The notes: generated by a model not told the origin, from the sequence alone. Shown: positions 19,372 through 41,231, numbered from the stretch's first letter. The stretch: 47,352 nucleotides of DNA from Phycisphaera sp. (GCA_028285385.1 JANQPR010000030.1:1-47352), one strand, 5' to 3'. Program-made: numbers and translations.

Positions 19372-19581
19372 CTAGGACGCTTCGAAGTGCAACGCCCGCG
19401 CATCGGACATCAAAGCGCGTAACGCGCGGATGTGAACGGCGCCATATCGCCGGTGTCCGCCCGGCGTGCGGTGAGCCGGCGGGATCAAGCCTTGACGTTC
19501 CCACACGCGCAGCGACTCGGGCGAGACGCCGAAGCGTTTAGCAAGCTGGCCAATCCGGATCGTGTTGTGCGGCGGAATCAT
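19372..19581 (-). CDS. Small MerR-type HTH protein (excisionase/AlpA-like)
   Basis: MIPPHNTIRIGQLAKRFGVSPESLRVWERQGLIPPAHRTPGGHRRYGAVHIRAL carries a MerR-family HTH with the GHRRY signature. It is 69 aa and lies next to repeat copy 1. Confidence 0.4.
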   Translation of the reverse strand: MIPPHNTIRIGQLAKRFGVSPESLRVWERQGLIPPAHRTPGGHRRYGAVHIRALRALMSDARALHFEAS

Positions 19582-19616: not shown

Positions 19617-19689
19617 CGGCCCTCCCCGGACTCGAACCGGGCACCTCCGGATTCAGAGTCCGGCGTGCATCCCGTTGCACCTGAGGGCT
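19617..19689 (-). tRNA. tRNA-Gln(CTG)
   Basis: Manual fold. The D-stem is gtgc/gcac. The anticodon stem is ccgga/tccgg with loop ctctgaa. The T-arm is cccgg-ttcgagt-ccggg and the discriminator is G. Confidence 0.65.
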
Positions 19690-19704
19690 TGCTTGCATTC
19701 CAAG

Positions 19705-19787
19705 TGGGACAGGACGGAGTCGAACCGCCACAGCCTTTCGGCGGCTGGTTTACAGCCAGCTGGGCTCGCCGGTGCCCAAGCTGCCCC
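19705..19787 (-). tRNA. tRNA-Tyr(GTA), type II
   Basis: Acceptor ggggcag/ctgtccc. Anticodon stem gctgg/ccagc with loop ctgtaaa. The variable arm is 14 nt long and the T-loop is ttcgact. Confidence 0.7.
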
Positions 19788-19791
19788 GCGC

Positions 19792-19838
19792 CGGAAAGTC
19801 TTCCCGCCAATGTCGCGTTTGCAGTGAAGACTTTCCGG
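19792..19838. promoter_or_regulatory. Perfect 13-bp inverted repeat hairpin between tRNA-Ser and tRNA-Tyr
   Basis: The arms ccggaaagtcttc and gaagactttccgg are separated by a 21-nt loop. Confidence 0.5.
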
Positions 19839-19847
19839 TCAGGCGTA

Positions 19848-19934
19848 GCGGAAGGCGGAGGACTCGAACCCCAAGCGGCGTACGCTCCACCCGTTTTCGA
19901 GACGGGGGCCGCCCCGACGGCGGGCTTCACCTTC
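19848..19934 (-). tRNA. tRNA-Ser(CGA), type II
   Basis: Acceptor ggaaggt/gccttcc. Anticodon stem cccgt/acggg with loop ctcgaaa. It has a long variable arm and a ttcgagt T-loop. Confidence 0.65.
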
Positions 19935-19968
19935 CGGAATGCCGCTCGCTCCAACGCGAGCAGGGTCA

Positions 19969-20039
19969 ATACCCCGTCCGGGTTTCGATCCCGGTCCTCC
20001 GGCTTGAAAGGCCGGCGTCTCGCCATTCGACCAACGGGG
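19969..20039 (-). tRNA. tRNA-Glu(TTC) with non-canonical T-loop ATCGAAA
   Basis: Acceptor gccccgt/acggggt. Anticodon stem ccggc/gccgg with loop ctttcaa. It has a 4-nt variable loop. The T-arm is ccggg-atcgaaa-cccgg. Confidence 0.55.
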
Positions 20040-20084
20040 CGTTGTCACGAGTACTGAACAGGCACGGCTTGCGCTCCTTTTCAA

Positions 20085-20172
20085 GCGGAAGGCGGTGGGC
20101 ACGATCCACAGGCGCTCGTGCGCCCCATCCGGCTAGCAACCGGAGCGGCGGCCGGCCCGCCGTTCACCTTCC
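20085..20172 (-). tRNA. tRNA-Ser(GCT), type II, non-canonical T-loop ATCGTGC
   Basis: Acceptor ggaaggt/gccttcc, the same as in Ser-CGA. Anticodon stem tccgg/ccgga with loop ttgctag. The variable arm forms ggcgc-acga-gcgcc. Confidence 0.55.
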
Positions 20173-20180
20173 AAGTCAAG

Positions 20181-20253
20181 AGGCCGGAGCGGGAATCGAA
20201 CCCGCATCTGGCGCGGTTGCAGCGCGCCGCCTTTACCATTCAGCCACCCGGCC
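20181..20253 (-). tRNA. tRNA-Cys(GCA)
   Basis: Acceptor ggccggg/tccggcc. Anticodon stem gcgcg/cgcgc with loop ctgcaac. T-arm gcggg-ttcgatt-cccgc. Confidence 0.7.
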
Positions 20254-20286
20254 ACGTTGAAGAGCGGATCAACGCGACGGAAATCG

Positions 20287-20313
20287 TGCGGCCGGCACCT
20301 TTCCGGCCGCACG
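20287..20313. terminator. GC hairpin downstream of the 274-aa gene (minus strand), terminator-like
   Basis: gtgcggccgg-cacctttc-cggccgcac. Confidence 0.4.
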
Positions 20314-20321
20314 GGTTAGGG

Positions 20322-21143
20322 TCAGTCGAGAAACGCCACGTGGCGCATCGCCCGGGCCTCGGGCTCGGTGTTCATCACGACCTCGCACCACCCGTTGAGC
20401 CGGATGGTCTTGTGGTCGGGGTGACGCACCTTGCCTCGCACAAGCAACTTGGGGTTGCGACGCATGACCTGGAACCGCTCACGGCGGGCCTGGTCGGGGT
20501 TGCGACGCATCCAATCGCGGTACTTGTCACCGGTCAGGCCGGTCGGGTGTTGGCGGCTGACGTAGACCGTCTCGCCGCCGTGACGCACCAACTCATCGAC
20601 CCAGTGCGGCTTGCTCCCCGCGCCGCGCGAGAGCGGCTCGTTGCGGAGGATCAGACGGGGGTCGATGTTCGCATCGGGACGAGGGATGAAGAACCATTCA
20701 CCCTGACGCACGAACGCGCGGTTCTTGCGTCGTCTGCCGTCCCGCGCCTTGAGCCCGACGCGGGCTTCGGCGTCGTTTACGGCATTGGGCTTGAGGGCCT
20801 GCATCGCGGTCCGGACGTTGGAAGCGCGGGCCGCTTCGGGCACCGCCGCCACGAACCAGTGGCGCTCGTCGTGACCGCAGAGGAACTTCTGCCGGCCTTC
20901 GGTCGAGTCGCGGTGGTCTACTTGCAGCAGCAGGTGCCGCTCACGGGGACGCACGTCGGTGACGTCGACGCGTTCCAGCCGGTCCGGGGCGGCCGTCAGG
21001 TTGAAAAACTCACCACGACGGTCCTGTCCGATGTCGATGCTCAGGGCGCCGGTGCGCTGCCACCACAAATGCCGCTGGGGCGGGGTGATCACAGCGCGGG
21101 CGCCCACACGGGCGAACTTCTCGATCAGCATGTCGTTGTCCAT
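20322..21143 (-). CDS. Hypothetical protein (274 aa) embedded in the tRNA array
   Basis: The start was set at MDNDMLIEKF, because the longer ORF-track extension runs through tRNA-Gly(GCC). It contains two H-x-T-x tetrads (HPTG, HKTI) of uncertain significance. Confidence 0.5.
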   Translation of the reverse strand: MDNDMLIEKFARVGARAVITPPQRHLWWQRTGALSIDIGQDRRGEFFNLTAAPDRLERVDVTDVRPRERHLLLQVDHRDSTEGRQKFLCGHDERHWFVAAVPEAARASNVRTAMQALKPNAVNDAEARVGLKARDGRRRKNRAFVRQGEWFFIPRPDANIDPRLILRNEPLSRGAGSKPHWVDELVRHGGETVYVSRQHPTGLTGDKYRDWMRRNPDQARRERFQVMRRNPKLLVRGKVRHPDHKTIRLNGWCEVVMNTEPEARAMRHVAFLD

Positions 21144-21265
21144 GACATGTCCTTTCAGGGAAGTGCGAATGTTCAGCGTCAGCGCAGGCCGACGCTTCCA
21201 TGCTTCGAGGGGGTACTGGGTTCCATCGGGTCTCCTTGAGTGAGAGGGAAAGGGGGATTCGAGCA

Positions 21266-21336
21266 ATGCGGCCGACAGGAATCGAACCTGCTCCTCCGCC
21301 GTGGCGGGGCGGCGTTCTGCCGGCGAACTCCGGCCG
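21266..21336 (-). tRNA. tRNA-Gly(GCC) with C33
   Basis: Acceptor gcggccg/cggccgc. D-stem gttc/gaac. Anticodon stem ccgcc/ggcgg with loop ccgccac. T-arm gcagg-ttcgatt-cctgt. Confidence 0.55.
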
Positions 21337-21343
21337 CATGAAT

Positions 21344-21381
21344 CGGCGTCGGGGTCGATAGACCGCGACGCCGCTGAGTTT
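21344..21381. terminator. Hairpin plus T-tract just downstream of the SPFH gene
   Basis: Stem cggcgtcg ... cgacgccg, followed by ctgagtttt on the plus strand. Confidence 0.35.
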
Positions 21382-21407
21382 TCACAAGGTCCGTGTTGAA
21401 GCACCGG

Positions 21408-22568
21408 CTACGCCTCGTTGGACTCGTTGAGTTCATCGAGTACGCAGCCCGGCTTGTCTTCCGTGGCCGTCAGGCTTCGCACCTGCCCGAGCAGGTCGCC
21501 CTGGCCGAGCACGAACGTCGCCTTCGTGCCCCGGAGCACGTCCTGCAGCGCCTCGAGTTCCTTCATTCGGGCGAGCACCGGGTTATCCGCGAGGAGCTTG
21601 GCCGTGTTCGCCTGGCTCCGGGCGGCGGCGGTCTCTTCGCGCCGACGGATCAGGTTGGCTTCGGCCTGCTTCTGGGCGAGGATCACCTCGTTGAGGATCG
21701 CCTTCATGTCGCCCGGCAGGATCACGTCCCGCAAGCCAACGCCCAGCACCTCGACGCCGAACTCGGCCGCACGCTTCAACAGCGCGTTGCGCACCTCACC
21801 GCCGACCGCGTCCTTGTCGGCCAGCAGCTTGTCGAGCGCCCGCCCGCCGACCGCTTCCCGCAATGCGAGCTGCGCCTCCCGGTACAGCGCCTGGGTGTAG
21901 TCGGCGACCGTCTCAACGGCCTTGCGCACCTCGGCCACGCGGTACGACACGACCAGGTTGATCCGCAGCGTCACCTTGTCCGCCGTCATGATCTCCTGAC
22001 CCGCCACGTCGGCCACCTGCTCGCGCAGGTCGACCGACTTCCACGTGATCTTGCCGGCGTGCTTCCAGTACACGTGCAGCCCCGGGCCGAGCTCGCTGAC
22101 CAGCCCGCCCTCCCGGAACAGGAGCACGCGCTCGTGCGCCTCGACGCGGACGCCGTCGAGGAAGTTCGCCCCGCCGCGGAAGCCGAGAATCGCCTCGATC
22201 TTCAGGTGCGTGAAGGCGAAGTCGTTGACGTTGAACGTCTCGACTTCAAGCTCGGCCGGGCCGTCCCAGAACACATGCCGTCCCGGGCCGAGGACCCAGC
22301 CGAGCCGGCCGTCTTTCCACACGAGCGCCCGCTCGTCGTCCTTGAGGTCGACCACGCGCAGCTTCTCGAGCAGCGCCGGCTCACGCACGAGCACCTCGAG
22401 GAGCTTGTGATCAAACTTGGTCTGGGTCCGGTCGACCACCTCGACGCGGTCCTTGCGCAGCCGACGCCAAGGCAGCCGGTAGGCCCCGGGGGTCAGCACC
22501 TGCTTGAAGTCGCCGTGGCGGAACCACAGGCCGACTTCGTGCTTACGGATACGAGTCTTCGCAAACAT
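21408..22568 (-). CDS. SPFH / band-7 (stomatin-prohibitin) family membrane-associated protein
   Basis: Start at MFAKTRIRK, with AAAGGAG 7 nt upstream on the coding strand. The SPFH core is LVVSYRVAEVRKAVETVADYT...ILPGDMKAI, followed by a C-terminal coiled coil. Confidence 0.75.
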   Translation of the reverse strand: MFAKTRIRKHEVGLWFRHGDFKQVLTPGAYRLPWRRLRKDRVEVVDRTQTKFDHKLLEVLVREPALLEKLRVVDLKDDERALVWKDGRLGWVLGPGRHVFWDGPAELEVETFNVNDFAFTHLKIEAILGFRGGANFLDGVRVEAHERVLLFREGGLVSELGPGLHVYWKHAGKITWKSVDLREQVADVAGQEIMTADKVTLRINLVVSYRVAEVRKAVETVADYTQALYREAQLALREAVGGRALDKLLADKDAVGGEVRNALLKRAAEFGVEVLGVGLRDVILPGDMKAILNEVILAQKQAEANLIRRREETAAARSQANTAKLLADNPVLARMKELEALQDVLRGTKATFVLGQGDLLGQVRSLTATEDKPGCVLDELNESNEA

Positions 22569-22985
22569 GGTCTTGGCTCCTTTCTCTAGGAAAGCCGGTG
22601 AGAGACACACCGCCGTGAACACCACAGCGACAGAAGGAATCGATCGAAGACGAAAATGACGTGGGCCGGTCGCGGCGCCGGGTGGCGCGACGCCGGGTCG
22701 GCGGCGGGGCCGGGCTTGAGCCGGGGCAGGGAGCGCCGTCGTGAACCGGCCGGGACGCGCCGCCGCCTCACCCCCGCGGAGTGCGGTCGGCGCGCCGGGC
22801 CGGTTCACCGTTTGGGCCGCGATGGCCCCACGCTTTGCCCCGGCGGGATCCGCCCGGCCGCAGAGCCGAGTCGCCGGTGCCGGTCGCACGACCACCGTGA
22901 TTCCGAAAACCACGGCCGCCACACGCCGACCCGCCGCGCCGGTCGGGCCACGCCGGACCCACGTCGAGGGCAGACGCTACTCGCG

Positions 22986-23035
22986 TCCAAGGAGGGGGAT
23001 TCGAACCCCGAGGGTGGGCAAACCCTTGCCGTTCC
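22986..23035 (-). pseudogene. tRNA 3'-fragment (T-arm ggggg-ttcgaat-ccccc plus acceptor) with no matching 5' half
   Basis: gagggggattcgaacccc on the plus strand. No complementary 5' acceptor or anticodon arm was found. Confidence 0.3.
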
Positions 23036-23102
23036 AGGCAGGAATCGAACCTGCGACCGACGGATTCATCGTCCGTTGCTCTAACCGACTGAGCTACTGG
23101 TT
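23030..23102 (-). pseudogene. tRNA-like (Ile/Ala-type D-arm tagctcagtcggttagagc) with aberrant anticodon loop cgatgaa and only 4 acceptor pairs; probable pseudo-tRNA
   Basis: T-arm gcagg-ttcgatt-cctgc. Anticodon stem acgga/tccgt. The acceptor pairs caaccag with ctggaac. Confidence 0.3.
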
Positions 23103-23175
23103 GATGTCAGACCGGAGTCGAACCGGTGTCTCCGGGATAACGGTCCCAGCGCTCTTCCTGTTGAGCTACTGACGC
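23103..23175 (-). tRNA. tRNA-like with abnormal anticodon loop (6- or 8-nt; stem ctggg(a)/(t)cccgg)
   Basis: Acceptor gcgtcag/ctgacat with one mismatch. D-arm tagctcaacaggaagagc. T-arm accgg-ttcgact-ccggt. The anticodon is undetermined. Confidence 0.35.
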
Positions 23176-23268
23176 CCCCGTACAGCCCGGCAGAACCCGT
23201 GTCGCGGAACGCCGACCGCTGATCGCAAAGCGAAGCGGGTGACGCCGCCGGACGAGCCGTACGGTTAA

Positions 23269-23341
23269 CACGCGCGAAAGGACTCGAACCTCTACCTTGC
23301 GGATTTGGAATCCGCCGCTCTACCGATTGAGCTACACGCGC
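23269..23341 (-). tRNA. tRNA-Trp(CCA)
   Basis: Anticodon stem gcgga/tccgc with loop ttccaaa. D-arm tagctcaatcggtagagc. T-loop ttcgagt. Confidence 0.7.
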
Positions 23342-23364
23342 AGACAATGCGATCCCAAGCATAG

Positions 23365-23436
23365 CTGCACCGGCAGGAGTCGAACCCGCAACCCGCTCCT
23401 TAACAGGGAGCCGCACTACCGTTGTGCTGCGGTGCA
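23365..23436 (-). tRNA. tRNA-Asn(GTT)
   Basis: Acceptor tgcaccg/cggtgca. D-stem gcac/gtgc. Anticodon stem gctcc/ggagc with loop ctgttaa. Confidence 0.7.
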
Positions 23437-23602
23437 TTTGGACCGAAGTGACCGAATATTTTCGTTGACAACTCCGACATGATGGCTTTATGGTCGAGTC
23501 GGACGCGGCGCGATGTCGTACCCGTCACTGCGTGCCCACCGCGGCGATTTCGGGTGGCCGTTGGTTCATCCCAGAACCGTATTTTGGTCAAGGAGGAGTT
23601 TC

Positions 23603-24313
23603 ATGCGCTGTCTATGCTTTGCTTCTGTCGCGGTGGTGGTTTGTTTGACATCGGTTAGCTCCGCCATGGCGGCTATCGATCCGGTGGGCTCGAGCCTGAC
23701 GACGGCCACCAATGTCCGCGTGCCGACCAACAACACCCTCGACTCGGATACCGACACCGATTCCCAAGGGGCCGTGATCCTTCCGTTGGACTCGTCGGTT
23801 TCGTCGAGTTTCTCCAGTATCAACGGATCGATTCAGTCGGACGCTACGGCGAACGCGACCTGGAGCGGCCCCGGCGAAGGCAGCTTGACTTACGAGTTTG
23901 TTTCGAATGTCGAGGCCATCAATTTGAACAGCCCGGGGACCTCGTCTTCATACGAGTGGACTTACAGCTTTATCCTCGACCAACCCGCCGAACTGTCCTT
24001 CGTGGCGGAATCGGTCCTTCAGTTCAATGACAATCCGTCGCGAGTTGACCAGTTCATCTTTTTCACGATCGACGGCGTCAGGCAGGAGGCCAACGGTCCC
24101 ACGATGAGGAGTCTTGCCATCGGCGCTCATACGATTGGATTCGATAACTTCCTGGGCGTCGGTGGCGGAGGTAGTTCTACTAACGTTACTCGGCTCTCCC
24201 CCGGTTCGGTCGATTGGCGGATCACGATCGTGCCTGAGCCGGCTTCCTGTCTTGTGTTCGCCTCGATGGCTTCGGTCTTTTTGATGCCGCGTCGAATCTG
24301 TTCTTGCCGTTAG
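23603..24313 (+). CDS. PEP-CTERM secreted protein (third paralogue class), located inside the tRNA array on the opposite strand
   Basis: AAGGAGG RBS. Signal peptide MRCLCFASVAVVVCLTSVSSAMA. C-terminal IVPEPASCLVFASMASVFLMPRR. Confidence 0.6.
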   Translation: MRCLCFASVAVVVCLTSVSSAMAAIDPVGSSLTTATNVRVPTNNTLDSDTDTDSQGAVILPLDSSVSSSFSSINGSIQSDATANATWSGPGEGSLTYEFVSNVEAINLNSPGTSSSYEWTYSFILDQPAELSFVAESVLQFNDNPSRVDQFIFFTIDGVRQEANGPTMRSLAIGAHTIGFDNFLGVGGGGSSTNVTRLSPGSVDWRITIVPEPASCLVFASMASVFLMPRRICSCR

Positions 24314-24347
24314 TGGTACTTGGGCCACCGTGTTTCACGGCTATCAA

Positions 24348-24420
24348 CCGCCCCGGCGGGACTCGAACCCGCACCATCCCGTTTAGAAGACGGGTGCTCT
24401 TCCGGTTAAGCGACGGGGCA
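24348..24420 (-). tRNA. tRNA-Arg(TCT)
   Basis: Anticodon stem cccgt/acggg with loop cttctaa. T-arm gcggg-ttcgagt-cccgc. Confidence 0.65.
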
Positions 24421-24500
24421 CCCCGGAAGGGGCGTGCGTGGCGGCGGCGAGCAGTTTGGTCATGCGCCATCGCTTGCGAGAGATCCGGAGACCAAGGAGA

Positions 24501-24573
24501 AGCTGGCGGCCGGATTCGAACCGGCGTGATCCGTATTACGAGTACGGCGCTTGAGCCACTCAGCCACACCAGC
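24501..24573 (-). tRNA. tRNA-Thr(CGT)
   Basis: Acceptor gctggtg/cgccagc. Anticodon stem ccgta/tacgg with loop ctcgtaa. T-arm gccgg-ttcgaat-ccggc. Confidence 0.65.
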
Positions 24574-24584
24574 GCTGGAGTAAG

Positions 24585-24657
24585 TGACCCCCGTGGGATT
24601 CGAACCCACACCCAACGGATTAAAAGTCCGCTGCTCTGCCGATCGAGCTACGGGGTC
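24585..24657 (-). tRNA. tRNA-Lys(TTT)
   Basis: D-arm tagctcgatcggcagagc. Anticodon stem gcgga/tccgt with loop cttttaa. T-arm gtggg-ttcgaat-cccac. Confidence 0.7.
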
Positions 24658-24686
24658 GACGCCACAGATCGACAACCAACTTGGAA

Positions 24687-24760
24687 TGAAACGGGTGGGC
24701 CACGATCCCACAACCTGCCGGTTAAGAGCCGGCTGCTCTGCCTGTTTGAGCTACCGTTTC
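24687..24760 (-). tRNA. tRNA-Lys(CTT) with non-canonical T-loop ATCGTGG
   Basis: Acceptor gaaacgg/ccgtttc. Anticodon stem gccgg/ccggc with loop ctcttaa. Confidence 0.55.
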
Positions 24761-25473
24761 AGAAAAAAAGGCTTTAGCGCAAGTTCTTGCCTTCTTGCCG
24801 GTGATCGCCCGGCGGGTCTGACCCGCCGAACGCTGCACACGGGGTGGTTAGCCCCTGCACCGACTTTGCCCCTGTTGTTGCGGTGTTGGCCGCACGCAAC
24901 AGCACGCAGGTCCTGCACGGCTGTTCTGAGGTAGGTGTCGAAGGTTGGCCGACCCCGACACCGCTCCCATCCGTTTTGGACGCCTGGGACGTCCGCCGCC
25001 GATCCCTTTCGGGCAGGCGCGGCCGGGTTTCCCCTGCCGCCGTAGGCACTTCCAGACTCGTGCAGTGACGCCTTGCGCGGTCTCCCGCGCTTTCCCAGGA
25101 CCACAACCCGGCGCTCAGAGAGCTGCCTCCGGGTTTCTAGAGTGGTCGATCGGTTCCTGCGATAGGCATCCCAATCCGCAGGTTCCGCGGGCCCGCACTC
25201 CGTGGGTGGCACCACGGCTCAAGGCCCTTGGCTGCTAAGGGTTTCACGCCTGCCACGGCGCTGATCCCTCCCCGGGCGGGTCGGCATCGTTGCGGCGCTG
25301 CCACGCCGCTCAGCCGAGCCGGGTTCCCCCTATCACGCGTTCGCGTGCCCGCCGCCCCGATCAGGCAGACAGGTTTGGTTCCCGAGGGCTGGGAGAACCG
25401 ACCCGACACGCACCTCACGTGTCGGAGCCGGGTAGGAGAGAAAAAGCATTTGAAACCAACACGCCGGCCGGGC

Positions 25474-26706
25474 TCAGTCCTTGTAGGGGTCGAGCTCGTC
25501 CTCGCCCGCCATCGCCACACCGATCGGCGTGAGCGTGTGGACAATGCGCACGGTGTCGCCGTGGGCCGCGAGCACCTCGGGGAGGCGCTTGTAGCAGTGC
25601 GGCGACTCGTCGGTGCCGGCGCCGCGAAGCTCGACACCGGCCTTCTTGACCCAGGCCTTCATCATCGCCGGGGTGATCTGGCCTTCGGTCTTGCGAACAA
25701 AACCTCCGGCCTTCTTGTCCCAGCGCTTCTTGCCTGCGGCCTGGGTCCGGCTCATCACCCGCCCGGCGCCGTGGACGGTCGAGTGCAGCGTCTTGACGCC
25801 GTCCTCGCTCTCGACCCCCTCGAGGACGACCGAGATGTCGCCCATCGACCCGCCGACAAACCCGCGTTGCCCCGGGAACGCCGGCGTCGCGCCCTTGCGG
25901 ACGACCCAGACTTCGAGCTCGTGGCCGTCGATCTCTTGGGTTTCCTTCCAGGCGAAGTTGTGGTGGTTGTGAACCTCCTCCACGATCTTCGTCTTGAGGA
26001 GCCGGGCGACCTTCTGGCACACCCAGTCGCGGCCCGCATAGGCGTAGCGCCCCGCCAGGTGCATGCACCGCAGGTACGACTCGCCCAGGTGGGAGTGCTC
26101 GTGGAACAGTACCGGCGCGACGTGCATGCCGTCCGTGCCACCGCCTTTCTCCACAAAGAACTTCGCGAGCCGGTGGCCGAGGCCGCGGGAGCCAAAGTGC
26201 ACGCCGCACCACACGCGGTCTTGCTCGTCCACGAACAGGTCGACGTAGTGGTTACCCGAGCCGACGGTACCGAGCTGCTTACGGGCCAACTCTTTGAGGT
26301 TCTGTGCGCCGCGGACGCGGATGCGCAGGCCATCGACGAGGCCCCATGCTTCGTCATCGAACAGTTCGTGGTCGACGTCCTCCTGGTTCTTCCGGCCGAC
26401 GCCGAATGAGATCTCCCGGTAGATCAGGTCCATGATCTTGCCGATGCCGCGCTTGACGTCATCGGCCTTGAGGTCGAGGCGGACGGCCTTGTTGCCGCAG
26501 GCGATGTCGTAGCCCACGCCGGACGGCGAGACCATGCCGTGGTACGCCACCACGCCGCCGATCGGCATCGCGTAGCCGACGTGGTGGTCACCCATCAGTG
26601 CCCCGGCCGCCGCGTCCTTGTCGGCCAGGCAGGTCTGGATCTGACGCACGGCCTGCGCATCTGGCACGCCCCAGACCGGCACGCCTTCCATCATCGTGCA
26701 ACCCAT
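25474..26706 (-). CDS. rtcB: RNA-splicing ligase RtcB (3'-phosphate/5'-OH RNA ligase)
   Basis: The conserved RtcB blocks are full length: GYAMPIGGV, GYDIACG, GSGNHYVDL, HFGSRGLGH and GAGR. The start was set at MGCTMMEG; the ORF-track N-terminal extension overlaps tRNA-Gly(TCC). Confidence 0.85.
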   Translation of the reverse strand: MGCTMMEGVPVWGVPDAQAVRQIQTCLADKDAAAGALMGDHHVGYAMPIGGVVAYHGMVSPSGVGYDIACGNKAVRLDLKADDVKRGIGKIMDLIYREISFGVGRKNQEDVDHELFDDEAWGLVDGLRIRVRGAQNLKELARKQLGTVGSGNHYVDLFVDEQDRVWCGVHFGSRGLGHRLAKFFVEKGGGTDGMHVAPVLFHEHSHLGESYLRCMHLAGRYAYAGRDWVCQKVARLLKTKIVEEVHNHHNFAWKETQEIDGHELEVWVVRKGATPAFPGQRGFVGGSMGDISVVLEGVESEDGVKTLHSTVHGAGRVMSRTQAAGKKRWDKKAGGFVRKTEGQITPAMMKAWVKKAGVELRGAGTDESPHCYKRLPEVLAAHGDTVRIVHTLTPIGVAMAGEDELDPYKD

Positions 26707-26756
26707 GTCACACCTCGCTTCCTTTCTACGTTCTCGTGTTTCTTCTTGGTGTTCAA

Positions 26757-26830
26757 TGCGTCGTGCCGGAATCGAACCGGCGGCCTCCGGATTGGAAGTC
26801 CGGCGCTCGGCCATCGTGAGCTCACGACGC
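26757..26830 (-). tRNA. tRNA-Gly(TCC)
   Basis: Acceptor gcgtcgt/acgacgc, a perfect pair. Anticodon stem ccgga/tccgg with loop cttccaa. It lies 50 nt upstream of the rtcB start. Confidence 0.75.
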
Positions 26831-26887
26831 GGAGGGTCTGCATCCTGCCGCTCCGAGCGAATCATTCCTTAAAAGTAGTAGTCACGG

Positions 26888-27142
26888 TTAACGCCGTCGT
26901 ACCGGCCCGTCTTCATGCAGCACTTCTTGAAAGGACTTGCCGGAACCGCAGGGGCAGCGGTCGTTGCGCCCGAGCTTCTCGATCAACTCCTTGTTGCCGT
27001 GCACGACCCGGTTGCCGCGCTTGACGTTCGTTTCGGACGGGAACCCTTTCCTTCGCTTGCTGGTGACCTCAAAAATAGAACTCGTCGTACGTCTCGTTGT
27101 GTGGATGCACGGGGCACCTCCTTTCAAATGGAAAGTGATCAA
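26888..27142 (-). CDS. Small SEC-C zinc-motif protein (84 aa)
   Basis: C-terminal [14 protein letters not shown] is a SEC-C metal-binding motif. The start codon abuts the tRNA-Pro(CGG) 3' end, so the true start and expression are uncertain. Confidence 0.35.
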
Positions 27143-27143
27143 G

Positions 27144-27217
27144 TCAGGGCAGCAGGACTCGAACCTGCGACCTCCCCGATCCGAACGGGGCGCTCTGGCC
27201 GGCTGAGCTACACCCTG
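27144..27217 (-). tRNA. tRNA-Pro(CGG)
   Basis: Anticodon stem ccccg/cgggg with loop ttcggat. D-arm tagctcagccggccagagc. Confidence 0.7.
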
Positions 27218-27271
27218 GCGATGGTGTGGTGAGTCACGCGGACGACGCGCAACCTCCCATGGCTAGGCAAG

Positions 27272-27346
27272 GGTGACGGACGGGACTCGAACCCGCTTCC
27301 GCCGGGTTCACCGCCCGGCACCTCGGCCACTTCGGCTTCCGCCACC
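27272..27346 (-). tRNA. tRNA-His(GTG)-like: 8-bp acceptor stem (G-1:C73) but G33 in the anticodon loop
   Basis: Acceptor ggtggcgg/ccgtcacc. Anticodon stem (g)ccggg/cccgg(c) with loop cggtgaa. T-arm gcggg-ttcgagt-cccgt. Confidence 0.45.
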
Positions 27347-27393
27347 ATCAACCCCGGGGCGCAGTCAAGCTTCGCGGCTTACTTCCGGGGGAA

Positions 27394-27466
27394 TCAGAGC
27401 GGCAGGGTTCGAACCTGCGGCCTCCCGGTCCCAAGCCGGGCGCTCTGCCGACCGAGCTCCGCTCTG
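27394..27466 (-). tRNA. tRNA-Pro(TGG)
   Basis: Acceptor cagagcg/cgctctg (C1:G72). Anticodon stem cccgg/ccggg with loop cttggga. Confidence 0.7.
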
Positions 27467-27481
27467 TCGCGATCAACGCGG

Positions 27482-27552
27482 TGGAGAAGGCGGGACTCGA
27501 ACCCGCATCACCCGCTTGCAAGGCGGGGGCTCTTCCGTTGAGCTACATCCCC
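27482..27552 (-). tRNA. tRNA-Ala(TGC)
   Basis: The G3:U70 identity pair is present. Anticodon stem cccgc/gcggg with loop cttgcaa. Confidence 0.65.
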
Positions 27553-27564
27553 GAGACAATCGAA

Positions 27565-27638
27565 TATCGCCGGGAGGATTCGAACCTCCAACCCCCGGGA
27601 TCTCGGCCCGGGCCCTCTGCCAGTTGGGGTACGGCGAC
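27565..27638 (-). tRNA. Class-I tRNA with anticodon GAG (nominally Leu) and C33; discriminator A73
   Basis: Acceptor gtcgccg/cggcgat. D-arm ta-cccc-aactggca-gagg. Anticodon stem ccggg/cccgg with loop ccgagat. The variable loop is 5 nt. Confidence 0.45.
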
Positions 27639-27657
27639 ACGTTGGTGACACGACAAA

Positions 27658-27730
27658 TACCGCCGGCAGGATTCGAACCTGCACTGAACCGATTCTGAGT
27701 CGGTGCCCTCTTCCGTTGGGGTACGGCGGC
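27658..27730 (-). tRNA. Class-I tRNA with anticodon CAG (nominally Leu), short variable loop; discriminator A73; paralogue of the preceding gene
   Basis: Acceptor gccgccg/cggcggt. Anticodon stem accga/tcggt with loop ctcagaa. The variable loop is tcagt. Confidence 0.5.
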
Positions 27731-27751
27731 TGATCAGGCGTAAGACAGCAG

Positions 27752-27823
27752 TCACTCCGGCAAGACTCGAACTTGCAGCCTTCGGCTTCGGAAACCGATG
27801 CTCTTCCGTTGAGCTACGGAGTG
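27752..27823 (-). tRNA. tRNA-Arg(CCG)
   Basis: Acceptor cactccg/cggagtg. Anticodon stem tcggt/gccga with loop ttccgaa. Confidence 0.65.
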
Positions 27824-27866
27824 TCGTAGGTGCGATCAACCGGCAGTAACGGGCGTGCCCGATGAA

Positions 27867-27937
27867 CGAGGCCGGCGGGAGTCGAACCCGCAACCGCCGG
27901 TTCAAAGCCGGCCGCTCTGCCGTTGAGCTACGGCCCG
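27867..27937 (-). tRNA. tRNA-Gln(TTG)
   Basis: Anticodon stem gccgg/ccggc with loop ctttgaa. T-arm gcggg-ttcgact-cccgc. The 1:72 pair is a mismatch. Confidence 0.6.
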
Positions 27938-27947
27938 GTTGTCGCAG

Positions 27948-28020
27948 TCACCCCGGCAGGACTCGAACCTGCAACCGCCGGATTCGTAGTCCGGGGCTCT
28001 TCCGATTGAGCTACGAGGTG
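27948..28020 (-). tRNA. tRNA-Arg(ACG)
   Basis: Acceptor cacctcg/cggggtg. Anticodon stem ccgga/tccgg with loop ctacgaa. Confidence 0.7.
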
Positions 28021-28026
28021 ATCCAA

Positions 28027-28100
28027 CGGCACTGGCGGGCCTCGAACCCGCGACCTCTTCCGTGACAGGGAAGCGCTCTGGCCAACTGAGCTACAGCACC
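28027..28100 (-). tRNA. tRNA-Asp(GTC)
   Basis: Anticodon stem cttcc/ggaag with loop ctgtcac. D-arm tagctcagttggccagagc. Confidence 0.7.
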
Positions 28101-28185
28101 TTCGAGCCGTGCAGGGCCAAGCCCCCGTGCGTCGTCGTCCGCCTTACCGCGACGCGCGTCTATAACACGGCTCGTGGCACGCCAA

Positions 28186-28257
28186 TCGACCCGGGAGGAT
28201 TCGAACCTCCGGCCTGCCGGTTATCAGCCGGCCGCTCTGCCACTGAGCTACGGGTCA
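28186..28257 (-). tRNA. tRNA-Ile(GAT)
   Basis: Anticodon stem gccgg/ccggc with loop ctgataa. T-arm ggagg-ttcgaat-cctcc. Confidence 0.7.
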
Positions 28258-28262
28258 GTTGC

Positions 28263-28312
28263 GACGGCCCGCCGACCCCCCGGCGCCCGATTGCGCCGGG
28301 GGCGGGCCGTCG
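28263..28312. promoter_or_regulatory. Long GC-rich hairpin (~19 bp in two stem segments) inside the tRNA array
   Basis: gacggcccg...cccccggcgc-ccgattg-gcgccggggg...cgggccgtc. Confidence 0.45.
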
Positions 28313-28361
28313 TCGTTGCATTGATCCGCTCTTCACTTGTCAAAGAACTCGTCACTCGTTT

Positions 28362-28380
28362 CGCGTGAACCGTTCACGCG
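28362..28380. promoter_or_regulatory. Perfect 19-bp palindrome (operator-like) upstream of tRNA-Phe
   Basis: cgcgtgaac-c-gttcacgcg. Confidence 0.4.
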
Positions 28381-28414
28381 TTCCGTCCAACCCCCCACAT
28401 ACTTCCGGGGGCAG

Positions 28415-28486
28415 CCGCTGGTCCAGGAATCGAACCTGGGGCTCCCGCTTTTCACGCGGGCGCTTTGCCGGCTAAGCGAACCAGCG
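28415..28486 (-). tRNA. tRNA-Phe(GAA)
   Basis: Acceptor cgctggt/accagcg. Anticodon stem cccgc/gcggg with loop gtgaaaa. Confidence 0.7.
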
Positions 28487-28496
28487 TTCCGTCCAA

Positions 28497-28569
28497 TCGC
28501 CGCGGCCGGATTCGAACCGGCAGCCTCCTCGTTGTGAGCGAGGCGCTCTCGCCGTTGAGCTACGCGGCA
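28497..28569 (-). tRNA. tRNA-Val(CAC)
   Basis: Anticodon stem cctcg/cgagg with loop ctcacaa. T-arm gccgg-ttcgaat-ccggc. Confidence 0.65.
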
Positions 28570-28647
28570 GCTTTGGCACGCCGACCGCGCAGACGAACCA
28601 AGTCGTCTTCAGCGGCGCGGAAGGACGTGTCGTCGTCGGGTTGTCAG

Positions 28648-28720
28648 TAGCGGCGGCGGGATTCGAACCCGCGGTCTCGAGAACATGACTCTCGCGAGGA
28701 CTCCGCTCCTCTACGCCGCG
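28648..28720 (-). tRNA. tRNA-Met(CAT) with initiator-like traits (unpaired C1/U72, A11:U24)
   Basis: Acceptor cgcggcg/cgccgct. D-stem gagg/cctc. Anticodon stem cgaga/tctcg with loop gtcatgt. Confidence 0.55.
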
Positions 28721-28735
28721 TCCTTTCGTCGTCAG

Positions 28736-28807
28736 TCGCGATGGCTGGATTTGAACCAGCGACCTCTCCCGTATGAAGGGCGTGCTCTGCCGTTGAGCTA
28801 CATCGCG
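28736..28807 (-). tRNA. tRNA-Met or Ile2 (CAT), elongator-type
   Basis: Acceptor cgcgatg/catcgcg. Anticodon loop ttcatac. T-arm gctgg-ttcaaat-ccagc. Confidence 0.55.
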
Positions 28808-28861
28808 TGTTGGTCATGGGTTTCCTTCGTCGTGCTTCCGGCTTTGGGCTTTGCGTTCGAG

Positions 28862-28933
28862 TGGTCACGGTTGGATTCGAACCAACGACTTCCTGCTTGT
28901 CGTGCAGGCGATCTTCCGCTGATCTACGCGACC
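28862..28933 (-). tRNA. tRNA-Val(GAC) with C33
   Basis: Acceptor ggtcgcg/cgtgacc. Anticodon stem cctgc/gcagg with loop acgacaa. Confidence 0.55.
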
Positions 28934-28942
28934 GGGGCAAAG

Positions 28943-29014
28943 TGACCTTGGCGGGACTCGAACCCGCAAGCTCCGCCTTGAGAGGGCGGCGTGCTGCCGT
29001 TGCACCACAAGGCC
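28943..29014 (-). tRNA. tRNA-Glu(CTC)
   Basis: Acceptor ggccttg/caaggtc. Anticodon stem ccgcc/ggcgg with loop ctctcaa. Confidence 0.65.
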
Positions 29015-29629
29015 TTGCGTGCGAAAAGCACTTGAAAACAAGGGCCAATCGGTCGTGGTAGAAGACGAATTAGGTTGTCGGGTCGGAAGGTGGGGCGCTC
29101 AGGCGGATAGCAGGGTACCGGGTCGGGCGGCCTGCCCGTCGGTATGTCGGCCCGCCGTATCGGTGGCCGCCAACGCAACGCCGGACATGCCGGCACCGGG
29201 GTAGCGACAACCTCGCCCGGGTCGATTGGCCGGACTGCCTTGACCCGCAAAGAACGCGGGCCGGCCGAGACCGCCAGGCAACACGGGCCGGACCGCACCT
29301 TGCGTGCGTTCGGCGTGGTTCAAGTTGTGTTGCTTGATGGTCATCGGGACACTTCCTTTACACGGGCACATGCCTGTGACGCGGAAACATATCGTCACTC
29401 TGTACCACATGCAATAGAAAAACGAGATCGTCGGGAAAAATGTTTGGTTCGCGCGGCGCAAGTGATGCGTTTATAGATTCTGGAGATTGGTCCGCTAGGC
29501 GAATGGATCAAGCCGACACGGCGTCGATGTAGCTACACGGACGCGCCGATTTGTCCCCCTCTGGAAATCTTGCTCCGACCTGAGTGAGAGAATCTGACCG
29601 GCTTACGACCGGAAAGGATTCTCCGATAG

Positions 29630-29876: not shown

Positions 29877-30010
29877 AGCCCAACCGAGCCCTATACAAGC
29901 CCTGCCGCCACCACTGAGGCGGTCGACGAAAAAAGGCCCGCCGTAAGTGGCGAGCCTTTCATCGTTTAGAAAGTAGCGGGGGCAGGATTCGAACCTGCGA
30001 CCTCCGGGTT
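29877..30010. repeat. Direct-repeat copy 2 (block, hairpin terminator 29933-29960, tRNA 3' half 29971-30010)
   Basis: aagcccaaccgagccctatacaagccctgc ... aggcccgccgtaagtggcgagcctttc ... agtagcgggggcaggattcgaacctgcgacctccgggtt. It diverges from copy 1 exactly inside the anticodon loop. Confidence 0.7.
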
Positions 30011-30135
30011 ATGAGCCCACTACTGAGGTTTCCCGCAACGTCTTGACTGAACAACTGCTGCAGTCGTCCACGAGAGTTATGGCCTCTCGACAGCCACGCC
30101 CATGTTACTCATGTAGGTCATGTTTTTCAGCTCAT

Positions 30136-30306: not shown

Positions 30307-33300
30307 TCATTCTTTCGAAGAAGCTTGCACATTCTCGAAGATCCTTTGCCAGTGCTGCAGATGGCGGCTCATCGCCGGGTCGCTGTAAAGGTGTGCGAGC
30401 GCATCCCGTCGCTGTTCACGATCAAACGGGATCACGGGGAGCTTGATGCATTGTTGCCAAACCTGACCGAGAATCGTCGCCGGCGTACTAGGGCTCGGGG
30501 CGTTCCTAGCATCGTATTCCACGATCTCCCACCCGTCGCCGGCGCCAGTTATGTCTAAGGAGTTTAGGTCAACAACCGGGTCCGACAGCGAGCCTTCGAA
30601 TTCGAACTTCGACTGCACTTGGAGCTGCATCGATCGCACCGTCATTAGTGCCTGCGCTACCGGCCGACTGCAGTATTTCCCCGATGAACGTTTGATGCCC
30701 CTGTAGATTAAATCAATAACATCGCGATAGATACGTGAGGTTTTTCTCGGATCAGTGGAGATGCTGTTGGTGAGGCGTTGAAACATCTCTTCTGCTTCAC
30801 CAATGTCGAGCCTACTTGTGGGCTCGTGTAGGTCAATTGCACCATACATGTAAATTTCCTCGATGTCGTCAAGTAGATCTTTGCGATTTAAGTAGTCAGC
30901 ATTTTGATCGTAGTACTCGATCGCCGCACGCAGATGATTTGGTTGCTGCGTGTCCATCATCAGCGAGCGCTGTAGTTCACGCGTCCGCGCCAAGTTATCG
31001 AAACTCGACCTTTGTTCGAAATCTAAAACAAGATTTTCGAGGCGTTCACGTAGGTGACTAGCAAGCTCGCGTTGGGTTTTCCGCCCAAACCGCTCTCCGA
31101 GGGCCCTCGTGAAACGTCGAACCGTGCGTTTGCTTGTGTTGTGGGCGAATTGCCAAGGAGACGAATCAAGAATCTCTGCTAGTTGATATAGCCGATGCTC
31201 ATCCTGTTCGGGTACCACAGAATGATCGACAAACGCGCCGCGACGAGACAAACTCTTCAGACCAAGTTTTTCTCGTCCAAACCAGTACGAGTTTCCTCCC
31301 ACTGCGAAAGCTTGAGTTTCCTGTCCCATGAGTTTTTCAATACGCCGAAGATCGGTGTCACTATTCACCCAAACCACTCGATCGACTTTGAGACGAGGCA
31401 TAAAGGTGGGATCCCAGACGCACGCCCCCTGAGGTGACGCTACCCAGCCGATCCCGTGGCTCTTGCTATCGATCGCAGGATGGGACTGCAACTGTTCAGG
31501 CGGCGTTACATTCATTGCGCGGGGATTGGGCGGGCCGCTCGGTGCGGCTACCGCAAGAAGAGCTGCGAGATTTCGGTAAACGTCCTCCTTTATCTCAGGC
31601 AAGAAGGAGATGCGCTCGTAATCGACGTTCAGCCGATCCAGGGTGAGCGGGAGCTTCCCATCTCTGTCAAAGACGGAGAGCGAGGGCATCGCCAACGAAG
31701 GCGGTTCCTTGTAGCCATGACCCGCTGAAATGTTGGGCGCGCTCTCAAGCGCTGGTAACCCACTCGCCTCTCGCTGGATGATAATCCCGTTGCAGACGAG
31801 CGCCGGGGCGTCGCCATAAGTCCAGCCGACGCGAAGGTAATCTTCCGGGGTGAGCCAGTGATAATCGTCGGGCGACGTATCGACCGTCGCCGGTAATTTG
31901 ACAGACTGTGGTAGCTCTTGGCCAATGGTCGAGACTCGGCGAATCGAAGGCCAGTCCAGACAGTACCAATCCCAGGATTCGGCAAGGCTTTCTTCTTGCT
32001 TCTCGCTGTTTGACTGCTGCATAAAAGCTGGCGGGCTGGTGGTGATCACTTCGACTCGTGTACCCGGTTGGTCACGCACCACGTGCTCGATCGCAAGCGG
32101 TCGGTCAGTTAATGATGCCGTGAAGGTTAGACCCCGCTCGGGTTCCGCCAGTACGTGTCGCGTTGTGACTCGGAGTTGCACCAATCGGGGGTCGTCAGCA
32201 ACCAGAAATGCGGCGAGAGCGCCGACGCCGAAGCGGCCCGATCGGAGCACAACCGATCTACCTGAGTCATCCTGGAAGCTTTTCTTCCACACCATTGAAG
32301 AACGAAACGATGCGCCCGCGTTCAGAAAGTAGCGTTGCAGGGTATCAAAGGTCATCCCCATTCCACCATCATCGATGATCAGCGACCATATGCCGTCTTC
32401 GTGTTTTTTTATCTGGACCTCGACGTGGGGCTGCCGGTCGGCGTCATTCTCGAGCCCAAGCGCTCTACGCTCGCGGACTGCATCAACTGCGTTCTGTACC
32501 AACTCGCGTACCGCGATCTCCGGGCGATCTCCGTACAACGGCTTGATGAGTAACTTAAGCAACTCGGCGTCGGCGGCGGAGAAGGTAACGCGGCAGGGCA
32601 CAAATCCCGCTTCCTTACCGAACGTATCTACATCATCAATGTTAGATCGAATCCGTCTGATGTTCAGACCCAAGAGCTTCTCTTGGTATCGCCCAAACAC
32701 CTCGCCCAGGACTGCCCATGAGGTATCGAGCTCGAACTGGATCGCATGCAGCCATTCTTGGGCCCGCAAGAAAAGCTCGATCGATGTGCGTTTGGGGTTG
32801 ATCTTGACCTCGACGACTTCGGGGTCTTCGTTTTTGTCGTAGACAATGTCCTGGACGATGTTGTGTACCCCCCACTCGACCTTACTCTTGGGGGACTTGA
32901 TACCGATGACTTTGAAAATCTGATTGGGCGCGCGATCGGACTGCAGTTGGAGGTAGTCGGCGATGCGCAACAGGACCATCAAGTACACCGTGTGTGTACC
33001 GTGGAACTCACGGACTTGGAACTTGCTGCTGAGGTAATCCAACAAGCAACGGATTGTGGTCCCGTGGCTGCGTGCGATCAAACCGGCAAGGTTGAGTTTA
33101 GGCTCGGCATCGTTGGAGCGTGGGGGGAAATCAGTTTCCGCCGACGCCAAGGCGGGCAGCCCTTTTATGGCCATTTCGTGAGCTAAGCGGTGGTGGTAGC
33201 GGCGGATGAACTCACCAATGTACGCGTGTTGGATCGGGCTCCAAGATTCTGCATTCTCAATTTCGGGCGCCTCGATCGGCTCATCAACGCCGAATAGTTC

Positions 33301-33723: not shown

Positions 33724-33729
33724 TGGAAC

Positions 33730-34254: not shown

Positions 34255-34338
34255 TATATACCCTGCGGATTGAAAGAAGGAAGACTCGGCGGCACTGCGC
34301 CGCGGCCCTGGAAGAGTTGAAATTCGATTCGCTTGGGA

Positions 34339-36345: not shown

Positions 36346-36406
36346 AAATACCCGGTCTTGTAGTCCTGCAGTTGATCCGCTTGGTTGGGTTTGTCACACG
36401 AGAGCA

Positions 36407-40776: not shown

Positions 40777-41231
40777 CTAGTACAGACGTATGGTCATCCA
40801 TTTGCTGGAAGCCTGAAGCAACGGGTCTGTTCAGCCTCTAACAGCGATCAGTCCGATCGTGCCCGAGAGCAAGTGATAGAGATGAGGATTCGGAAGACAC
40901 AGGCAGACACTGATGTTTCAATGCGCAGAGCGCGTTCTCATTGGCACACTGCTCCTTCCGGAATTCAAGTTGTTCAGTCATGCAGACGCACCGGGAGTGG
41001 AAGCGCCCCCCGCTTCGCAATCTAGGGGCTAAGGATGCGCATCGCAAGATTTTTCTTTGCTCGTATGTGATTTCCGTAGGAATCGTTCGGGTAGACACAT
41101 CGGCCAAGACTCACCAAGAGGGTTTGCCCAAGCCGCCTGAATCGGGTTTCTGTTCTGACGGGTGAATCCACGGTCAGGTTGAATGGCGATAAGATCGTTA
41201 CCCTTCATCGATCTCAGGACCTGCTTGACCC

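Follow-up and report, generated by a model that had tools for sequence, protein, structure and literature searches.

A long tRNA array of a Phycisphaera sp. with embedded genes for RtcB, a Band-7 protein and an unannotated protein family, U274

What are the genes of an RNA ligase, an SPFH/Band-7 protein and an unannotated protein doing inside a long row of tRNA genes? The question is raised by 47,352 nt of DNA of Phycisphaera sp. (GCA_028285385.1 JANQPR010000030.1:1-47352), the whole of which is referred to below as the window. Long tRNA arrays are widespread yet poorly understood; one study connects them with translational stress, and others propose an anti-defence role. The first-pass annotation of the window had placed rtcB, an SPFH gene and an open reading frame (ORF) for a 274-aa protein, named here U274, within a tRNA array, and ARAGORN and Pfam reproduced this arrangement and its coordinates, with all three genes in the orientation of the tRNAs (Table 1). 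With moderate confidence, the region is read here as a long tRNA array of accessory kind (L-array, or tRNA array unit), organised as one operon, whose protein genes serve RNA repair and the maintenance of translation. Retrieved relative loci that were compared with the window are designated by L-numbers (L001, L087, L100 etc.).

Table 1. Features of the tRNA array region, with positions counted from the first nucleotide of the window
Feature	Coordinates	Strand	Basis
Long tRNA array, 33 genes including 2 further tRNA-like genes, all co-oriented	19617..29014	-	ARAGORN, Rfam
U274, 274 aa, basic (pI 10.8), soluble, unannotated family	20322..21146	-	ORF call, homology searches
SPFH/Band-7 protein, 387 aa	21408..22571	-	Pfam Band_7 1.9e-31, profile positions 2-175 of 176
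GC-rich 5′ leader preceding the SPFH gene, conserved	22572..23033	-	69% mean column identity when the window is aligned with L087 and L089
Pair of odd tRNA-like genes immediately upstream of the SPFH leader	23034..23176	-	ARAGORN, Rfam, alignment
rtcB, 3′-phosphate/5′-hydroxyl RNA ligase, 410 aa	25474..26706	-	Pfam RtcB 2.4e-64; phrog_1075 1.3e-69
tRNA-Gly(GCC), separating the SPFH and U274 genes	21266..21338	-	ARAGORN
tRNA-Gly(TCC), 50 nt 5′ of the rtcB ATG	26757..26830	-	ARAGORN
Class-II tRNA-like gene, overlooked by ARAGORN	19850..19935	-	Rfam tRNA-Sec model, 35 bits, E 5e-4
Promoter-like element TTGCAT, 15-16 nt, CGATAT(G/A)xTT	29386..29414	-	invariant alignment columns, window, L087, L088, L089 and L001
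Leader: Shine-Dalgarno sequence and ATG of a short ORF, then CGCAC-N5-GTGCG hairpin	29270..29344	-	tblastn, DNA alignment
11-bp GC hairpin, 9 nt past the U274 stop, without U-tract	20285..20313	-	-27.8 kcal/mol, z -3.1
Antisense PEP-CTERM secreted-protein gene, specific to the window array	23513..24313	+	ORF call, own promoter-like site
Non-coding GC-rich spacer after rtcB, 712 nt	24762..25473	-	spacer analysis
Small basic SEC-C-motif ORF	26888..27142	-	Pfam SEC-C 2.1e-6
Short MerR/BldC-like helix-turn-helix (HTH) protein, 69 aa, HTH domain only, closing the array	19372..19581	-	Pfam MerR 3.6e-17, NCBIfam

The array and its RNA-repair genes

The list of tRNA genes predicted by ARAGORN includes 31 genes at 19617-29014, without exception on the minus strand. 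The Rfam search agrees with this list and further contributes a tRNA at 23034-23100 and, once the threshold is relaxed, the class-II tRNA-like gene at 19850-19935, whose syntenic position in L087 and L174 is occupied by a tRNA-Ser. With 31-33 genes in 9.4 kb, or about 3.3-3.5 genes per kb, the array falls within the definition of a tRNA array unit given by Tran et al. 2015 (PMC4758250), namely at least 20 tRNA genes at no fewer than two per kb. The single orientation of the whole set and the promoter-like element upstream of it are also those of an L-array and suggest co-transcription. Chance does not account for such clustering, as six or more tRNA genes in 20.8 kb have P of about 7e-7 under random placement. 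All 20 amino acids are represented, the array tRNAs score 43-69 bits with Rfam, like normal tRNAs, and the GC content of the array (0.60-0.70) equals that of the surrounding chromosome. Bacterial tRNA-Leu is normally of class II. In the window, tRNA-Leu(GAG) and tRNA-Leu(CAG) at 27564-27639 and 27658-27730 belong to class I, being 76 and 73 nt long with a variable loop of 4-5 nt and no long variable arm; short Leu tRNAs are also found in L001, L004, L087-L089, L100 and L174, beside one normal 85-nt tRNA-Leu(TAA).

The position of rtcB between tRNA-Lys and tRNA-Gly(TCC), described earlier, was borne out, with tRNA-Lys(CTT) located downstream of the gene beyond a spacer of 712 nt that had gone unmentioned. 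The tRNA-Gly(TCC) does lie in the 5′ leader of rtcB: the 50-nt gap between its end and the ATG contains a GAGG ribosome-binding site, and the same tRNA is found 39-72 nt upstream of rtcB in L087, L089 and L174. As was found by alignment with RtcB of P. horikoshii, equivalents of D65, H67, D95, C98, N202/H203, H234, H329 and H404 are all conserved, so that both the metal-binding Asp/Cys/His residues and the GMP-accepting His are present. The active site of the window RtcB is complete, and ligase activity is predicted.

The linkage between rtcB and the tRNA array is conserved in relatives. Five of the six closest contig-placed RtcB homologs (76-85% identity) are encoded in syntenic arrays of 21-36 tRNAs, which share the order Pro-His-Pro-Gly(TCC)-rtcB-Lys-Lys-Thr-Arg(TCT)-Asn-Trp-(odd tRNA)-Band_7-Gly(GCC)-Cys-Ser-Tyr-Gln-MerR; further upstream there is usually an HNH gene. 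The flanking genes differ at every syntenic array. One close homolog (79%) and a 69%-identical homolog from Armatimonadota are not linked to an array. It seems that the earlier idea of an array with its own RNA repair stands as far as the linkage and the intact active site are concerned, but it had largely been published before.

The SPFH/Band-7 protein has N-terminal beta-hairpin repeats ahead of the Band_7 domain. The start of its gene was placed at 22571 because the Shine-Dalgarno sequence and the ATG are conserved in three arrays. No membrane anchor was detected in the protein (the maximum Kyte-Doolittle 19-residue window is 1.17), and the HflK/HflC models gave scores far under the cut-offs; judged by its sequence, the protein is soluble. 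Homologs occupy the same slot in L087, L089 and L174 and also occur in other arrays. The same strand carries rtcB and the Band-7 gene 2.9 kb apart, and this pairing is also present in L087, L089, L174 and L100.

Two unusual tRNA-like genes precede the leader of the SPFH gene. The first of them (23034-23100) scores 48.9 bits with Rfam and has G33 in place of U33, which is universal in tRNAs, and the second (23102-23176) has an abnormal anticodon loop. Comparison of five arrays indicated that the tRNA-like gene adjacent to Band-7 keeps its D arm, T arm and anticodon stem, with a varying anticodon (ATG, GAT, GTC, AAG). These genes also gave a weak match to YrlA (30 bits against a cut-off of 69, E 0.003). 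The leader itself, about 450 nt long, follows the tRNA-like gene and opens with a T-arm-like half-tRNA (GGGGTTCGAATCCCC). The tRNA-like genes are candidates for a tRNA associated with band-7, or b7a-tRNA. The locus unites what is expected of an RtcB/Band-7/b7a-tRNA system, that is, both proteins at one locus and a tRNA-like RNA adjoining the Band-7 gene.

A possible mechanism may be outlined as follows. The array would be transcribed from the TTGCAT...CGATAT element as one long precursor, an idea with which the tight spacing of genes and tRNAs is consistent. RNase P and RNase Z would free the tRNAs and thereby also excise the mRNAs, which are located about 40-70 nt from the adjacent tRNAs. Upon cleavage of tRNA or rRNA by toxins or anticodon nucleases, or under other translational stress, the spare tRNAs would restock the pool, and RtcB would rejoin breaks with 2′,3′-cyclic-phosphate and 5′-OH ends. 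By analogy with Ro60 and Y RNA, the Band-7 protein and its tRNA-like RNA might provide a scaffold or cofactor for RtcB. U274 would be the third component, one that recurs across lineages and, in Planctomycetota, Acidobacteriota and Verrucomicrobiota as well as in large viral contigs, is embedded amid tRNA genes. A counter-defence role of the array cargo is one possibility; the trigger may be a conflict with phages or defence systems, perhaps through anticodon nucleases, or may be translational stress of a general kind.

The U274 family

The U274 gene is located between tRNA-Gly(GCC) and tRNA-Cys and has its own ribosome-binding site, AAGGA. The homologs found at E <= 1e-3 number 6,385, every one labelled 'hypothetical', and the exhaustive search gave 1,541 clusters at 50% identity. 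The family is present in at least 561 GTDB species genomes, mostly of Planctomycetota (all major orders) and a few of Acidobacteriota and Verrucomicrobiota. Among 34 sequences 51-73% identical to the query, 49 columns are invariant. The signature common to the long and the short (viral-type) forms comprises G-x-D93-E, R147-Q-G-E-W-F-F153, H181, G238-x3-H242-x-D-H245-x-T, N259-x-E261 and the C-terminal D274; the short-form subfamily has at least 880 unnamed members.

Searches with the single sequence and with the profile against Pfam, NCBIfam, PHROGs, PADLOC and the sequences of the PDB returned no match, nor were matches found in the PLSDB plasmids and INPHARED phages. The structural model is confident, with a predicted local distance difference test (pLDDT) score of 93; it has no fold match in the PDB and a single match in BFVD, an unnamed 424-aa viral protein (E 4e-5). 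Distant viral members, compared with Pfam and PHROGs, matched only phrog_29643, to which no function is assigned. The remote matches of a short-form member were limited to hypothetical proteins of Gordonia and Microbacterium phages, and the profile search with the short-form subfamily found unnamed metagenomic proteins only. Thus, neither the searches nor the structure prediction supplied a housekeeping annotation for the 274-aa protein, and the protein is array-linked in many bacteria and viral contigs. The first-pass annotation would have been contradicted by a housekeeping 274-aa protein together with an unconserved rtcB/tRNA linkage; the opposite outcome on both points favours its reading.

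The linkage of U274 to arrays was assessed in a scan of the genome collection, the best 80 hits of which were kept and gave 78 non-redundant loci. At 28 of these loci, U274 lies within an array of 6-42 tRNAs. Contig look-ups and the window itself raise the number of arrays that hold U274 to 30. In the 28 array loci, 627 of 628 tRNAs are co-oriented with U274, and the median gap is 68 nt to the preceding tRNA and 46 nt to the following one. The neighbour-joining tree placed the array copies mainly in one clade, where they account for 27 of 38 sequences versus 2 of 44 in the other (Fisher p = 1e-10). The other clade groups by taxonomy (Gemmataceae, Isosphaeraceae), and neither conserved neighbours nor a shared RNA family were found for the non-array copies. 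Next to one such copy, in an Isosphaeraceae metagenome-assembled genome (L016), a tmRNA gene (6304-6668) is situated about 3.3 kb away on the opposite strand; this single case is probably a coincidence.

Relatives of U274 with 27-51% identity were also detected in 80 IMG/VR contigs (73 non-duplicate), the viral status of which is IMG/VR's own call, with at least one of them (L100) looking like a bacterial chromosome segment. Many of the contigs are 100-530 kb long, and their GC content spans 0.27-0.66. Of the 73, about 30 carry 5-27 co-oriented tRNAs within 10 kb, often 6-120 nt from the U274 relative. The gene order is Band_7-GNAT-RlaP(PF10127)-tRNA-Lys-U274-RtcB-HNH in L100 and U274-(sigma factor, opposite strand)-RtcB-metallophosphoesterase in L096. 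Further recurrent neighbours of U274 in arrays and viral contigs are HNH, Ro60/TROVE-vWA and PTH2-like genes; HNH genes co-occur with it in 12 arrays and 5 viral loci.

A role directed at tRNA is favoured by the basic charge of U274, by the invariance of certain Asp, Glu and His residues, by conservation of the protein among phyla and viruses alike, and by the genes that neighbour it. The best guess is a metal-dependent enzyme acting on tRNAs or their precursors in end-healing, processing or protection. It is tentatively suggested, as an idea that may well prove wrong, that U274 and its short-form viral relatives form a new superfamily with an unseen fold, enzymes that would repair, process or shield tRNAs and would be tied to bacterial and jumbo-phage arrays, the stand-alone planctomycete copies being the housekeeping version.

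Alternatively, U274 might be a free-standing selfish gene, a homing-type endonuclease or a similar mobile cassette that colonises tRNA spacers, so that its linkage to arrays would reflect a target preference; even so, the repair module of RtcB and Band-7 would be a genuine one. SegB in the tRNA region of T4 and the HNH genes of other arrays are models for such behaviour. The gene is indeed present in some syntenic arrays and absent from others, since it follows tRNA-Gly(GCC) in the window, L001 and L006, and Gly(GCC) is directly followed by Cys in L087, L089 and L174. Its slot also varies with the array lineage; in arrays of Pirellulaceae, it comes after Arg(TCT). Co-occurrence with HNH genes and the presence in viral contigs agree with mobility, array-embedded HNH genes are on record for cyanobacteria and mycobacteria, and the 'DH...N..E' residues at a beta-hairpin/helix junction loosely resemble a beta-beta-alpha-metal finger. 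However, an identity of 50-70% across orders, the invariant columns and the family-wide RQGEWFF constitute unusually strong conservation for a homing gene. Besides, the non-array clade tracks taxonomy, as vertical inheritance of a cellular gene would give, and most genomes have one or two copies. No sequence or profile similarity was found between U274 and the HNH, GIY-YIG, LAGLIDADG or PD-(D/E)xK families, and the hhalign comparison with the array HNH family was negative (probability 0.3%). The selfish-gene explanation, the main rival of a tRNA-directed role, is unlikely.

Control signals, inserted genes and the status of the array

The promoter-like motif, the start of the short leader ORF and the hairpin are common to the window and four syntenic arrays and lie about 330-400 nt upstream of the first tRNA, the motif itself at about 370-400 nt. 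In the leader ORF, the first 14 or so codons are conserved (M-N/T-x-K-Q-Q/H-N-L-N-x-x-E-R-T), and in a tblastn search the small ORFs that precede the arrays of L088 and L089 matched window positions 29344-29288. The leader ORF and hairpin could constitute a translation sensor of the leader-peptide or attenuation type. A scan of the array strand between 19372 and 29500 with the sigma-70 consensus revealed no promoter-like site besides the conserved upstream element.

The SPFH gene and the 274-aa ORF had been described as having hairpin terminators. A GC-rich hairpin does follow each of the three protein genes (z = -3.1, -3.1 and -1.9 versus shuffles), but the description was overstated, because none of the hairpins has a U-tract and the terminator scan showed no enrichment, with 5 found versus 9.9 expected from shuffles.

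Several elements had been overlooked in the first-pass annotation, namely the promoter and leader, the 712-nt spacer, the antisense PEP-CTERM gene, the SEC-C ORF and the MerR gene. The PEP-CTERM gene has a promoter-like site at 23465-23494 (TTGACA-18-TATGGT) and is absent from L087 and L089, where the slot from tRNA-Arg(TCT) to tRNA-Asn measures about 138 nt or less. This indicates that the array tolerates an insertion transcribed against it. The spacer after rtcB contains a hairpin about 50 nt past the rtcB stop and a second stem-loop with U7 adjoining tRNA-Lys; in the syntenic arrays, about 58-80 nt are found in its place. The spacer had no Rfam match, and comparison with the fetched loci at the protein and DNA level gave only a stretch of 42 nt in L088. 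Homologs of the SEC-C ORF are present in six arrays. The window SEC-C protein departs from them right after CPCGSGKSF, with loss of the final Cys/His pair of the motif, and may be a frameshifted or decaying copy. In L001, L006, L087, L088 and L089, the arrays likewise have a MerR homolog at their 3′ end.

The rest of the window resembles a planctomycete chromosome, with genes for DUF1559-type prepilin proteins, PEP-CTERM proteins and glycoside hydrolases. On its upstream side, the array is adjoined by an island of lower GC content (0.53-0.58) at 30307-42853, which encodes an HD-CE and HATPase protein (1138 aa), an unannotated 668-aa protein, a patatin-like phospholipase, an ArdC-type anti-restriction protein and a Sel1-repeat protein with a weak PADLOC match to the 'Lit' peptidase (E 5e-5). 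An error-prone DnaE2-like polymerase gene comes after the island genes. The segment looks like a defence or mobile island. Between it and the array, a sub-threshold tRNA-like fragment at 29974-30037 on the minus strand (28.6 bits against a cut-off of 29) may be the leftover of a tRNA integration site. Direct repeats (att sites) flanking the array were sought at its edges, with nothing convincing and no match for this fragment, and no integrase was found at the window array.

In one relative, a planctomycete genome of 9.1 Mb, genes of a tyrosine integrase, an HTH_17 protein and a DnaB-type helicase (L004, 1-4675) are situated just upstream of a 29-tRNA array with U274 and Band_7. This integrase/DnaB module is confined to L004 and absent from the window. 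Arrays may be landing pads for integrative elements. An 89-aa protein without Pfam match (MxKNVKYxQCxMRR...) is encoded in seven Pirellulales arrays, L004, L009, L017 (8524-8793), L023, L026, L040 and L078, and genes of 23S_rRNA_IVP four-helix-bundle proteins also recur in arrays of this order.

One indirect sign of accessory status is a stand-alone tRNA-Glu(CTC) outside the L087 array, which is strongly unlike the array's own copy. The observations that bear on horizontal spread are the different flanks of each syntenic relative and the related cargo in other phyla and viral contigs; the Pirellulaceae arrays look vertically retained. Several points weigh against an accessory repair operon. 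The accessory status was judged from 47 kb of the host genome only, and no sequence or fold match supports any activity of U274. About 60% of U274 genes lie outside arrays, so the protein does not need an array, and RtcB is near U274 at only about 7 of about 155 loci. Several array tRNA-Leu are of class I, and upstream of Band-7 the anticodon loops of the tRNA-like genes are degenerate, hence some array genes are not necessarily decoding tRNAs. The consensus scans showed neither a terminator excess nor internal promoters, planctomycete signals possibly differing from the consensus.

The complete amino acid coverage, the normal tRNA scores and the chromosomal GC content would also suit a main housekeeping tRNA operon, as in Firmicutes, in which the embedded genes are incidental and functionally unrelated. 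Arrays in which U274 has the same spacing, 68 nt upstream and 42 nt downstream, persist in several genera of Pirellulaceae, a sign of long vertical retention, and the inserted PEP-CTERM gene is of an unrelated host type. This explanation is weakened by the divergent tRNA-Glu(CTC) of L087, by the flanks that differ in every syntenic relative and by the class-I tRNA-Leu and anticodon-degenerate tRNA-like genes, which are atypical of housekeeping sets. Arrays from different phyla and from viral contigs have the same protein families in common, and published surveys place Planctomycetes among the phyla with supernumerary L-arrays. The housekeeping explanation seems improbable, somewhat more so than the selfish-gene explanation of U274. 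Least probable is a decaying, disused remnant of a prophage or integrative element, for which the degenerate SEC-C motif, the homolog-less spacer after rtcB, the antisense insertion, the neighbouring low-GC island with its ArdC, patatin and HD-CE genes, and the reportedly poor expression of long arrays under standard conditions might be cited, since RtcB, Band-7 and U274 are full-length with every conserved residue kept, the promoter and leader are conserved across five arrays, synteny is maintained at 76-85% protein identity, and no phage structural or integration genes were found within the window array.

Comparison with known systems

The proposed accessory repair operon can be compared with several systems. 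Among long arrays of bacteria, the sole precedent from experiment is the trn operon of Anabaena sp. PCC 7120, which is induced under translational stress (Santamaria-Gomez et al. 2021, PMC8421152). According to the same work, L-arrays are supernumerary, horizontally spread and linked to or co-regulated with rtcB and an HNH gene, and Planctomycetes are among the phyla that possess them. Like the cyanobacterial L-arrays, the window array is long, co-oriented and non-periodic, with more than 20 tRNA genes and with protein genes linked or embedded. The dedicated regulated promoter of the Anabaena operon may have its counterpart in the conserved promoter-like element of the window. The neighbours of cyanobacterial L-arrays include HNH and rtcB, whereas the window has no HNH gene. 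In Anabaena, rtcB is a distant co-regulated gene; in the window it is inside the array, and the cargo further includes Band-7 with its tRNA-like leader and U274.

An RNA-repair system of RtcB, Band-7 and a 'band-7-associated tRNA' was predicted earlier (Burroughs & Aravind 2016, via bioRxiv 10.1101/312249, PMC7824862). As described in these sources, the predicted system resembles the window in occupying one locus and in having a non-decoder tRNA-like gene directly upstream of Band-7. It differs in that the two genes of the window are separated by about 2.9 kb, with seven normal tRNAs and the antisense gene between them, and are part of a 33-gene array. The rsr-yrlBA-rtcBA operon of Salmonella (Ro60, tRNA-like Y RNA and RtcB) likewise combines an RNA ligase, a ring or scaffold protein and a tRNA-mimicking RNA. 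In contrast to it, the window has no Ro60, as was found by tblastn, no RtcA and no RtcR, and Band-7 stands in the place of Ro60. Ro60/TROVE-vWA genes do flank about 10 related arrays and 4 viral loci.

The tRNA array units on linear plasmids and phages of mycobacteria comprise more than 20 tRNA genes at more than two per kb, are redundant with the chromosomal tRNAs, contain an embedded HNH gene and are named 'putative antidefense' (PMC12803027; see also PMC4758250). They belong to another phylum and carry other cargo; in a term search of the text of PMC12803027, RtcB, 'ligase' and SPFH were all absent. Both the RtcB/Band-7/tRNA-like module and the association of long arrays with rtcB and HNH genes have been published before. 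New are the U274 family with its tRNA-array link from bacteria to viral contigs and the conserved architecture of the planctomycete arrays. Judged by this locus and its relatives, the arrays of Planctomycetota probably form a conserved operon with a fixed promoter and leader and with exchangeable slots for HNH, RtcB, Band-7 with tRNA-like RNA, U274, the SEC-C protein and MerR.

Clusters of tRNA genes in jumbo phages, with RtcB or Rnl ligases, TROVE proteins and phosphoesterases, are regarded by Iyer et al. 2021 (PMC7824862) as counter-measures to host attack on translation. U274 is not among the families named in the parts of the article that were consulted. Unlike these clusters, the window is a bacterial chromosome segment without phage structural genes. 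The U274 relatives of IMG/VR contigs are found in comparable tRNA clusters. U274 is a concrete candidate for a new tRNA-directed activity, and there are cultured bacteria whose arrays contain U274, namely Novipirellula sp. SH528, Roseiconus nitratireducens JC645, Stieleria sedimenti ICT_E10.1 and Rhodopirellula sallentina SM41. If the proposal is true, U274 would be the missing part of a 'spare tRNAs plus RNA repair' toolkit that bacteria and large phages use in conflicts over translation.

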